In this document: one piece after another, positions 9,001 to 12,000 of the stretch | Numbering within the stretch: position 1 is the stretch's first letter | Layout: every line of letters starts with the position of its first letter | Source of the DNA: Stx2-converting phage Stx2a F578 | Direction: 5' to 3' (one strand) | DNA: 24,274 nt | Sequence record: LC487997 | Made by a program: the position numbers

Positions 9001-12000
9001 GTTTGCATTGTAAGACCACTCGTGATGGGGTTGGCCTGTGTAGTTTGTCGGAGCTAATCGCCTCCTGACTTTGCAGGTTTGCGCGACGAGCTCTACGGCG
9101 AGAAGCTGCGGTGCCTTTAAATTCTGTTTTTCTGGACATAGATTCCTCCCGAATAAACTTTGGCGATGCAATCTCGAAGCTCCTCCTGAGACGGTTGCTT
9201 CGGCATTGCATCCCACAGCTTATGTGGTTGGGTGATCTGGCTTTTCAGCCACGTAGTCGAGAGTCGACGTTGTTTAAAGAGCCTGCCAGTCTGTTCCATT
9301 TGGCTTCCAGCGTCCTGCTGATGGTTAAATAGTACGATATGTACTTCACTTGGTCAATACAATTTGTTCTAAAACGGGGCGTTTTTTTACAACGCTTTGT
9401 ATTTAATAGTATTGTTTTTTAGCGTGGGTGTATTGCCTCGGCGATGTAAGGAGAGATCAGAATTGCGTTGTTTAGTGAGTTGTATCTATTTATTTTCCAA
9501 TAAATACAATTGGTTATGTGTTTTTTTGGGCGAGAGGAAAAGAAAACCCGGCATGGAGGCCGGGTTGATGATTAGCGGTGTGGCCTTGAGCGATAATGCT
9601 CACACACATGTTCAAGATTTCCATGCCTTATCCGTTCATAGGCATTCACATGAACTTCTCGATCGAATTGGTCATTCAAATTGTATGTAGACATCTGTGT
9701 TTTCTCATATTGGCGGCAGCCCTACAACCGCTTGAAAAAATGTACCAGACGCGCTAAGGTTACATCGCAAATATTGTGTACCTTAACAAGGGCTCCTTTT
9801 GGAGGCTCTGGTTAAACAGCATCAATGTCGGACTGGGGAGTTGGACATTGTGCTGAATGCTTTTGCATTATTGAGGCCGAACGTAAACCTTCAGAATTGA
9901 AGAGATGCGTTCGGCTTCTTCGTTTGTGATATCGTTAGGAATGCCTTTAATCGTTACTGTAACCCCTGATTCAGGTCGAAGAACTACTGGAAGATCATAG
10001 GTATGAAGTGCATTAGCCTTGCCTTCGACTTTTGTTGGTTCGCCAGTCAAATCTTTTTCCTCACTGGATTCTTTGTCAATCGGAGTGTATGGGATTTCTT
10101 CACCAGACTGGAAAGCTACAAACTTTTTGATTGCACTTTCCATGCGGCTTTTATATGCAGTAATGCTGCTGTCGCTAGGCTTCGGCTCAGTTGCGTTGAT
10201 GTATCGCTCGGCAAGCTCATTCACATCAAGCTGAGTAACATCACCCATTTCCTCTTCTTGGACTACCGTTAAGAGGCGAGCGGATGAGTTTTTTAAATTT
10301 CGAGCGGTGGCCTCCTTCATTATGTTCAGCGACATAAGCTCTTCAAGGAAGTCCTTGAATGCCTGCACGCTAACGTTTGACTTTGCCATTTGCTCTCTCT
10401 CTAAGTTATTGACTCAGATCGAGTTTATCCAGGAATTGATTTGCATGCAAGACTCAAGTCTTGAGAATTTCCGTTCAAGATCCACTCTCAATAAAAAAGG
10501 CCGCACCTCTGCGACCTTTCATCTCCTAAATCTCTTTTCTCTTACCTAAAGAAACAGCAGGCTGGGTCAGCCCTAACAACTTCAAGTGCATCGGTCAGAG
10601 AAAGCTCCGTGCTATACAGGTGTTATTTCATATCTTTTTGCATCCAATAAATTTTCCATCTGTCCAGAGAGCGGATGCACTTGATTCTTGTTGATGGCAG
10701 GACGTTTTTTCACCTGCCTCACCCTGCCATACAGGACGCTGCTCACCGATATCTATCGTCCGGTCATTGATGTTATAGACAATATCCAGATCATTACGGA
10801 TATACTCAGATGGCCTTATGCTTTCAATGAATAGATGAACTTCTTTTTGACCGCTTGATACTCATGGCCATTAAACTCCATCTATCCTCTTTACCCAAAC
10901 GTCTCTTCAGGCCATTGGCTGGCGATAACTTTCCCCACAACGGAACAACTCTCATTGCATGGGATCATTGGATATTGCGGGTTTAGTGGTTGTAGAAACA
11001 CCTGACCGCTATCCCTGATCAGTTTCTTGAAGGTAAATTCATCACCACCAAGTCTGGCTATGCAGAAATCGCCGGGCTCAACAGCTTGCTCAGGGTCAAC
11101 CAGAATTAACATCCCGTCAGGAAAACTAGGTTTGGAACCTGTTGGTGCGGTCATTGAGTTACCTTCAACCTCAAGCCAGAATGCAGAGTCACTGGCTTTT
11201 TTGGTTGTGCTTACCAATCTCTCCGCATCACCTTTGGTAAAGGTTCTGAGTTCTGGAGAGAACATCCCAGCCTGAACATGAGAAAAAACAGGGTACTCAT
11301 ATTGTTTTTTAACTGGGGCCGATGAGTATTCGCCAACAGGTGAAAATGTCCCGTCGTGGTTGAATGATATGTTATCAATACCAAGGTATTTAAACACCAC
11401 ACCAATATCACTAAGAGATGGATGACGAGATCCGCGCAACCAGTGTCCAATTCCACCCTGCGTCATACCTAGCTCTTCGGCTAACTTCTCTTGAGTTATG
11501 CCGAGCTCTTTCATTCTGGATCTAGCCAGTTCATACCATTTCATTTTCATGTCCTTATTATTACGCTCTGTACTGGAACCATCCATGCACAATGTGTATT
11601 TTTACTTGTATTTGAGAAGTACATATTGTATTTTTTATTCGTGGTTACTATGGAGGGCATATGAGCAACCTACGAAAATATCGAGAGTCACTGAATATCT
11701 CTCAAACAACACTTGCTAAGGCAGTTGGATGCACACAGGGAGCTATCGGACATTGGGAATCTGGTCGTCGCTTCCCAGACCTTAAAACATGCCGTGCTCT
11801 TGTTGCGTGTCTAAACAAGTTAGGCGCAAAAGTAAGTCTTGATGACGTGTTCCCGCCGGAGCACAAAGCCGCTTAATAAGCGGAGCCGCTCTTTGTAACA
11901 ACGGACATTCGTCCTACGTCGCTGAAAAGCGAGTCCCAAGATATCTGACCAACTAAGGCCATATGCGTTTCCACGCATACCTTTCAACTAACTATTCACT

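Follow-up and report, generated by a model that had tools for sequence, protein, structure and literature searches.

In phage lambda, the genes rexA and rexB are co-transcribed with the repressor gene cI from the promoter pRM and form a lysogen-expressed abortive-infection pair between cI and the terminator tIMM. In the Shiga toxin 2 (Stx2)-converting phage Stx2a F578 (sequence record LC487997; the whole 24,274-nt stretch analysed here is called the window, and all coordinates refer to it), the same slot holds the gene ECs1184, which encodes an acidic protein of 173 amino acids (aa). Phages of this type (Sp5/VT2-Sakai) carry stx2a in the O157:H7 lineages most often tied to severe disease, and the ECs1184 gene and its undeletable phenotype are already published. 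Here we show that ECs1184 belongs, as its first gene, to a unit of ~950 bp that is insulated by terminators and occupies the rexAB slot of Sp5. From start to end, the unit consists of a terminator (T1), a conserved promoter whose -35 element is overlapped by a palindrome, the gene for the 173-aa protein, a structured RNA of ~145 nt, the gene for a 40-aa protein (H0092) and a second terminator (T2). ECs1184 may regulate or neutralise the module to which it belongs, in an arrangement akin to addiction; we assign this inferred reading a probability of roughly 0.4. Our literature searches found no account of how the module is organised, of its structured RNA, of H0092 as a genuine gene, of the fold, of the DUF3024 pseudogene beside the unit, or of the size and mobility of the family, and no small RNA or transcript described at the ECs1184 locus.

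Compared with lambda rexA-rexB, the ECs1184 unit has the same slot and orientation, a homologous downstream terminator segment (87.5% identity), a two-gene composition and presumed expression in the lysogen. The two show no sequence or fold similarity, however, and, unlike rexAB, which is deletable and has no structured RNA between its genes, the ECs1184 unit has such an intercistronic RNA and is set apart from cI by a strong terminator and a separate promoter. Accessory genes directly downstream of a lambdoid prophage repressor also include BstA-aba of the Salmonella prophage BTP1 and stk/DUF3024 of 933W-type phages, but the proteins involved (KilA-N/BstA, a kinase and DUF3024, respectively) are unrelated to ECs1184, which is not known to confer defence; Sp5 itself holds a DUF3024 gene, but a decayed one.

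Other described systems resemble parts of the unit. The modelled fold of ECs1184 resembles that of the core-binding domain found in tyrosine recombinases such as lambda Int (2oxo), IntI4 and XerA/D/H; the SPbeta-family repressors MrpR and SroF, which derive from recombinases, also count among the closest known systems. Unlike the recombinases, ECs1184 has no catalytic or arm-binding domain, is acidic rather than basic, shares 5-13% sequence identity with them and has a unique C-terminal beta-hairpin-helix domain. In the prophage operons P1 immI c4-icd-ant and Qin dicF-dicB, a structured RNA goes together with a small toxic protein, and by analogy the ECs1184 unit may likewise combine an RNA element and a small protein in one temperate-phage transcription unit. 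An analogy can also be drawn to type II/III toxin-antitoxin modules, with a first component that is not removable and with autoregulation through a palindromic operator being plausible. The genes of the unit are co-oriented between two terminators and a palindrome lies at the promoter, but they are 173 nt apart with an RNA between them; neither protein has a match in Pfam, NCBIfam or PADLOC, and hence none to a known toxin or antitoxin family. A deletion of ECs1184 alone has not been obtained in the literature, and the one natural deletion removes both genes plus pL, N and kil. The unit resembles the RNA-plus-small-protein operons and the toxin-antitoxin modules in logic only; it shows no homology to them, and its order (protein, RNA, small open reading frame) differs from theirs.

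A terminator-insulated unit in the rexAB slot

Region 9300-10900 of the window is 100% identical to VT2-Sakai (Sp5), Stx2 phage II, phage 1717, Nil2 and ~40 further Stx phages, and is contained in 235 of 5,426 complete E. coli genomes. On the Sakai chromosome, the 173-aa open reading frame (ORF) is named ECs_1184 and cI is ECs_1185; in record AP000422 the former is H0093, followed by the 40-aa ORF H0092, and its Sp5 name is ORF23. A gap in the numbering suggests that the old locus tag of H0092 was probably ECs1183. On the minus strand, the leftward reading gives cI, ECs1184, H0092, pL and N, with the following features.

10493..10516, minus strand: T1, intrinsic terminator (7-bp core stem GGUCGCA/UGCGGCC, loop GAGG, U6)
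10448..10463, minus strand: palindrome CAAGAC-TTGA-GTCTTG, candidate operator overlapping the -35 element, from cross-locus conservation
10422..10450, minus strand: P1184, predicted promoter (-35 TTGCAT at 10450..10445, 17-bp spacer, -10 TAAACT at 10427..10422)
9868..10389, minus strand: ECs1184 (H0093, Sp5 ORF23), 173-aa acidic protein
9713..9855, minus strand: structured intercistronic RNA of type B, ~145 nt, from covariation
9572..9694, minus strand: H0092, 40-aa His/Cys-rich protein with the motif EVHVN.YERIR.GN[LI]EHVCEH[YF]RSRPH
9538..9566, minus strand: T2, intrinsic terminator and homologue of the lambda tIMM segment, parting the unit from oL/pL and N
9329..9404, minus strand: oL operators and pL, which drives N leftward (annotation of AP000422 and AP005153)
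8867..9211, minus strand: N, driven by pL

The first-pass annotation of the window, made from the sequence alone, had placed the gene in the position that lambda uses for rexAB. This is borne out by positions 9451-9566 (T2 included), which match at 87.5% identity the stretch of lambda that runs from the rexB stop to oL and contains tIMM; therefore, the unit occupies exactly the rexAB position. A consensus scan gave a promoter-like site in the pL region, at 9357..9329. The annotation was also right about the ORF itself, its acidity and the two terminators, but the gene is not the stand-alone one it had been taken for, as the 40-aa ORF and the covarying RNA lie within the same terminator-bounded unit, and neither the proposed hairpin upstream of the gene (as RNA) nor a hairpin-rich gap after cI held up (below).

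Both terminators show the GC-rich stem, short loop and 3' U-tract of rho-independent terminators and fold with z<=-4 on the minus strand, in agreement with the intrinsic terminators first proposed on both sides of the gene. The T1 core stem (10516..10499) extends to a predicted helix of 11 bp (10520..10495) through A-U and G-U pairs and is followed by the U6 at 10498..10493 (folding free energy -15.9 kcal/mol, z -4.0). T2 has an 8-bp stem (9566..9545), a 6-nt loop and the U-rich tail UUUUCUUUU (-14.3 kcal/mol, z -4.8), and none of 200 shuffles was as stable in either case. AP000422 labels this distal hairpin 'terminator for pRM transcript'. The view that T1 isolates the unit from cI is supported.

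For comparison across loci, ECs1184 homologues were gathered from phage records, viral contigs and genomes. In the Sakai, Oslo, Proteus, Serratia, Cronobacter and SH2026 loci alike, the T1 hairpin precedes the gene of this family. The full U6 after it was found in Sakai only, vs. a short U run in SH2026Stx1 and no U-tract in the 933W-type phage JLK-2012, and thus the hairpin may terminate transcription in some phages and allow read-through in others. The hairpin (10499-10516) is also common to phages with different downstream cargo, with homology stopping directly past it in comparisons of Sakai with JLK-2012 and SH2026Stx1.

Downstream of T1, a conserved sigma-70-like promoter, P1184, is predicted, with a start near 10415 (~75 nt from the end of the T1 U-tract) and a GATC at 10420..10417. 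Its layout is shared by the loci of Sakai, Oslo, Proteus, Cronobacter and L027 (TTGCnn, 17 bp, TAAACT or TAGAAT, and a leader of ~26 nt). A simple consensus promoter scan did not list P1184, and therefore it should be regarded as a conserved but moderate match. The palindrome is kept as (T)AAGAC-N4-GTCTT in Sakai, Oslo and L027 and has one base changed in one arm in Proteus and Cronobacter. An upstream hairpin with a 6-bp stem had been proposed here; the sequence is present, but as an RNA hairpin CAAGAC-N4-GTCTTG is indistinguishable from shuffles (z 0.03), and a conserved DNA palindrome overlapping the -35 element is the better reading.

Relatives in the nin region have the same promoter geometry (-35 TTGATC, 17 bp, -10 TAAACT or TAGACT) with different repeats that contain CGATCG. 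Such variation of the repeats within a constant promoter frame would be consistent with control by a factor that the module encodes. Both groups have conserved GATC (Dam) sites, beside the -10 element in the immunity-region group (10417-10420) and inside the -35 repeats in the nin-region group (upstream in L040-L057), and hence Dam or SeqA effects are possible.

A structured RNA and a small ORF follow the protein gene

Covariation in both of its variants shows the intercistronic stretch to be a structured RNA. In the variant of the window (type B, carried by Sakai, Oslo, Cronobacter and others), the helices are P1 (9855-9839/9834-9817), P2 (9812-9807/9749-9744), P2a (9805-9803/9797-9795) and P3 (9788-9780/9760-9752), followed by the single-stranded AUUUUUUCAAG and then P4 (9731-9727/9717-9713). 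Its alignment (A9) has 94.7% of cells paired vs. 26-48% in slid controls, with 8 compensatory pairs. The other variant (type A, 16 sequences) has 96.4% of cells paired vs. 35-47% in slid controls and compensatory changes in 12 of its 28 pairs, values that were reached by none of 500 shuffles. The architecture is the same in both, that is, a P1 hairpin, a long-range P2 around inner hairpins, a conserved single-stranded A/U-rich segment ending in UCAAG, and a P4 hairpin directly before the start of the small ORF. A covariance model of type A detected nine further loci at expectation values (E)<1e-18, and missed the Sakai element (type B) even with filters off; therefore, the relationship between the two types is based on shared architecture and motifs. 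Searches of Rfam, at the gathering and E<=10 thresholds, gave nothing relevant for the window or the related loci.

The type A RNA is ~117 nt long in L040-L069 and related loci (e.g., L043:2204-2320), where it is located between the family gene and a 57-aa ORF of PHROG 33859. The P1 apex (loop 9839-9834 within P1, 9817-9855) is exactly inverted between relatives, with a CUCCCC loop in some and a GGGGAG loop in others; the apex reads GTCCAACTCCCCAGTCCGAC in Sakai, Cronobacter and L027 and GTCGGACTGGGGAGTTGGAC in Oslo, L062, L037 and L067.

The small ORF behind the RNA is conserved at the protein level across genera, the H0092 type being present in Oslo, Cronobacter, L067 and SH2026. In L067, where the large protein is just 37% identical, about three-quarters of the aligned residues of H0092 are as in Sakai (manual count). 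H0092 matches PHROG 21154, and the current RefSeq record of strain Sakai no longer annotates it. Downstream of most inspected homologues of ECs1184 there is conserved non-coding sequence, and behind it a small ORF of one of three alternative Cys/His-rich kinds, the second being basic and 57 aa long (the PHROG 33859 type) and the third 47 aa long and zinc-ribbon-like, with a weak treble-clef match.

ECs1184 resembles a recombinase DNA-binding domain in structural models

ECs1184 has an isoelectric point of 4.85, and its sole family match is PHROG 2602, of unknown function, in keeping with its first description as an acidic protein of unrecognised family. An AlphaFold2 model built on an alignment of 149 sequences (predicted local distance difference test, pLDDT, 89) has four helices in residues 8-94, a beta-hairpin at 130-151 and a helix at 156-168, the latter two forming a C-terminal domain (130-168); residues ~102-127 form an acidic low-confidence linker that is probably disordered. 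The modelling shows residues 8-94 as a four-helix domain that resembles the core-binding (SAM-like) domain of tyrosine recombinases, and the assignment was reproduced with two models.

The sequence signal for this fold is weak. ECs1184 matches Phage_int_SAM_1 at E 0.047, and sub-threshold matches were found in 14 of 149 family members. A BLASTP comparison with the Sp5 integrase (Int) was not significant (E 0.10), with the aligned stretch directly after the Int arm-binding domain, where the core-binding domain is expected. Foldseek against the PDB returned nothing significant, and neither single-sequence nor 149-sequence profile searches of the PDB found anything. Remote-homology searches and structure prediction hence gave a resemblance at the fold level only, to a recombinase DNA-binding domain, and no homology to a characterised structural or housekeeping protein was found. 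The catalytic R-K-H-R-H/W-Y domain is absent, given that ECs1184 ends at residue 173 with a 40-residue beta-hairpin-helix and has no Phage_integrase match (Sp5 Int has one); therefore, ECs1184 is not a recombinase. For the C-terminal domain there was no fold match, and Pfam scans of ten C-domain fragments returned noise only.

The family comprises 652 clusters (50% identity, E<=1e-3), all of ~165-200 aa and with the same two-domain architecture; conservation is domain-specific and the linker is variable. Three 63-aa proteins (P0194, P0198 and P0204) hold only the linker end and the C-terminal beta-hairpin-helix domain, and may be truncated genes or stand-alone C-domains. P0194 occurs on 311 contigs, with Salmonella, Citrobacter and Enterobacter as named sources.

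The module occurs at several sites of temperate phages

Close homologues of ECs1184 (>=54% identity) are always located between an S24-type repressor gene and N, with or without an intact DUF3024 gene, and have Proteus/Providencia/Morganella, Serratia, Cronobacter, Salmonella and E. coli as hosts. The cI-type repressors beside the module are of at least four lengths (some 210-227 aa). Distant homologues (35-46% identity) are found between replication genes and NinB/Q, by Ant, by the integrase gene or by the tail tape-measure gene, and a genome-contig search with protein P0049 gave one locus. This comparison across related prophages shows the unit to be a self-contained mobile module that moves between sites of many temperate phages, each of its parts occurring in variants.

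The promoter-gene-terminator (moron) layout that had been proposed for the gene is upheld by T1 and T2, which are identified by folding, by the conserved predicted promoter and by the occurrences at other sites. As is typical of morons, the slot is filled differently in related phages, i.e., by rexAB in lambda and by DUF3024, RuvC-like and stk genes in JLK-2012. A distinct base composition, on the other hand, was not observed; a compositional anomaly at the unit was rejected, since GC stays at 41-46% from 8000 to 12500 and does not shift at the unit.

Published and natural genetics of ECs1184

Mondal et al. (2016) made in-frame, marker-free deletions of function-unknown Sp5 genes by sacB allelic exchange in an MG1655 lysogen (PMC5155283). 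They obtained 43 mutants, and the deletions of ORF23 (ECs1184) and ORF21 (ECs1180) were never obtained (PMC5155283). The second of these genes lies downstream of N:

8557-8808, minus strand: ECs1180, 83 aa, PHROG 2471, between N and ea10, the other undeletable Sp5 gene

In uninduced enterohaemorrhagic E. coli cultures, ECs1184 was recovered in the RNA-associated proteome of the TRAPP study at a false discovery rate of 0.065 (PMC7618764), which is indirect evidence for expression from the repressed prophage. Data from dRNA-seq and Term-seq also exist (GSE143631).

Natural variants of the locus were also found. In strain 08-3914 (locus L085), the insertion sequence (IS) IS1203 is located between the DUF3024 pseudogene and T1, with the remainder intact, and strain 2149 has the same break point; that an insertion is tolerated there fits expression of ECs1184 independently of pRM. 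IS1203/IS629 copies just on the cI side of T1 (about 10517-10522) are present in several O157 genomes. In strain NE92 (locus L084), a deletion starting from an IS takes T1, ECs1184, H0092, T2, pL, N, ECs1180, cIII, kil and part of gam. It is the only natural loss of ECs1184 that we found, and shows that loss of ECs1184 is possible when its partner and the pL operon disappear with it.

Explanations for the failed deletion

Since the module is mobile and independent of any one cI allele, the cause of indispensability is expected within the unit itself or in what follows directly from its transcription, as opposed to a partnership with the CI protein of Sp5. A cause within the unit, in turn, favours a role of ECs1184 as regulator or neutraliser with addiction-like logic. 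The mechanistic steps, which we infer from the anatomy, conservation, RNA structure and fold demonstrated above, would be as follows. In the lysogen, the unit would rely for transcription on a promoter of its own and not on pRM, and ECs1184 would act as its negative regulator or neutraliser, either by repressing its own promoter at the palindrome, or by restraining the small protein (directly or via the intercistronic RNA), or both. Loss of ECs1184 alone, with the promoter, RNA and small ORF still present, would then kill the lysogen, which would account for the failed deletion. The benefit of the unit to the lysogen might be defence, prophage stabilisation or another one.

Several observations weigh against this regulator or neutraliser role. 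The small proteins match no known toxin family, and in the Yersinia phage YP3 the large gene stands alone, with neither the RNA nor a small ORF. The N-terminal domain of ECs1184 is acidic (net charge -4.5; family median -0.5) and thus a poor fit for DNA or RNA binding, which weakens the claim that ECs1184 binds nucleic acid, and its polynucleotide kinase (PNK) signal was no higher than that of the superfolder green fluorescent protein (sfGFP) control (PMC7618764). Further, the failed deletion could be technical, or could reflect read-through into N-kil instead of a toxic effect from within the module, and ECs1180, with no evident link to the unit, is also undeletable, which hints at an explanation at the level of the switch.

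If ECs1184 is indeed required for lysogen viability, it would provide a handle on prophage stability and toxin induction; a predicted promoter and operator, an RNA structure, a small partner ORF dropped from RefSeq and a fold assignment are now defined. A more specific version of the addiction-like arrangement, namely that ECs1184, the RNA and H0092 together form a hitherto undescribed kind of prophage addiction or defence module in which a recombinase-fold protein and an RNA restrain a tiny zinc-binding effector, is rather speculative, and we would give it the lesser odds. If true, this module, widespread and mobile among temperate phages of Enterobacterales, would account for the inability of the main Stx2a prophage to lose ECs1184. 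To the phage accessory modules, the findings add a structured RNA family that seems not to have been described before and a family of recombinase-domain proteins (>=650 clusters).

Alternatively, ECs1184 could help to maintain lysogeny as part of the Sp5 switch, a proposal of Mondal et al.; together with or beside CI, it would keep lytic promoters or an antirepressor silent, for instance by binding phage DNA through the recombinase-like domain, such that its deletion would cause induction and host death. The location of ECs1184 within the immunity region and the undeletability of ECs1180, a gene of the pL operon, are consistent with this proposal. However, the family is found beside cI-type repressors of at least four lengths, and hence is not tied to one operator set, as well as far from immunity regions (nin, integrase and tail genes). 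In addition, T1 uncouples ECs1184 from cI, the protein is acidic, and a role in the switch leaves the conserved RNA and the small ORF unexplained. We consider it unlikely.

About equally unlikely, in our view, is that the unit is a lysogen-expressed anti-phage or superinfection-exclusion system, that is, a two-protein (plus RNA) abortive-infection module with a role like that of rexAB, bstA or stk. The slot between cI and N is a documented hotspot for lysogen-expressed defence genes, e.g., rexAB and bstA (PMC8585504), and to this extent the expectation that such a locus holds lysogen-expressed exclusion or host-modifying genes was well founded. The moron-like layout and mobility also fit, as does the neighbouring gene of relatives, which is a defence candidate (PDC-S43), and two genes with a restrained small partner would be compatible with abortive-infection or toxin-antitoxin-like defence. 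For ECs1184 itself, however, nothing in the analysis pointed to exclusion or host modification, and none of the 5027 PADLOC models (v2) matches any component (ECs1184, H0092 or the SH2026 homologue), the only hit being the neighbouring DUF3024 gene. Many relatives, moreover, carry the module in the early rightward operon, which would be odd for a lysogen-only gene. The failed deletion would, under a defence role, be a side effect of losing a sensor or inhibitor component that restrains an effector, which is compatible with the addiction reading.

It is also conceivable, but improbable, that the protein is dispensable and the failed deletion a cis or polar artefact. Removing 504 bp would bring P1184 close to the RNA, H0092 and T2, and the allele might be counter-selected due to more read-through into nutL-N-kil or to altered spacing for oL-oR looping. 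Indeed, pRM, P1184 and pL all run in the same direction with T2 as the sole shield of N and kil, and the natural deletion that lacks ECs1184 also lacks pL, N and kil. However, T2 is a strong terminator, and the conservation of the protein in two domains across >=650 clusters indicates that it is functional. In lambda oL-oR looping, ~2-kb loops are also not sensitive to changes of ~500 bp. Finally, that ECs1184 is a chance ORF between two terminators, for which only the lack of a named family would speak, is refuted by the 652 clusters with the same two-domain architecture, the domain-specific conservation with a variable linker, the confident AlphaFold2 model and the detection of the protein by mass spectrometry.

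A decayed DUF3024 gene and other neighbouring sequences

The gap of ~375 bp between cI and T1, described at first as hairpin-rich, turned out to be largely a former gene:

10542..10881, minus strand: decayed DUF3024 (PADLOC PDC-S43) gene directly after cI, from alignment to intact homologues

Region 10498-10900 is ~81% identical to the DUF3024-gene region of SH2026Stx1, JLK-2012 and ST160, where the gene is intact (113 aa). Alignment with SH2026Stx1 and JLK-2012 reveals two 1-nt deletions and premature stops in Sakai, and hence 10881..10542 is a pseudogene. An intact DUF3024 homologue matches the PADLOC candidate PDC-S43 at E 7e-42, and the gene is intact at the same position after cI in 933W-type phages, SH2026Stx1, ST160 and Proteus prophages; in JLK-2012, the RuvC-like and stk genes come after the T1 hairpin instead. 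A structured RNA in the gap was rejected, its folding being barely more stable than that of shuffles and not significantly so (z -1.7, 5 of 100 shuffles).

On the other side of the unit, a hydrophobic ORF of 86 aa (8797-9057, plus strand) is antisense to N and adjoins ECs1180.

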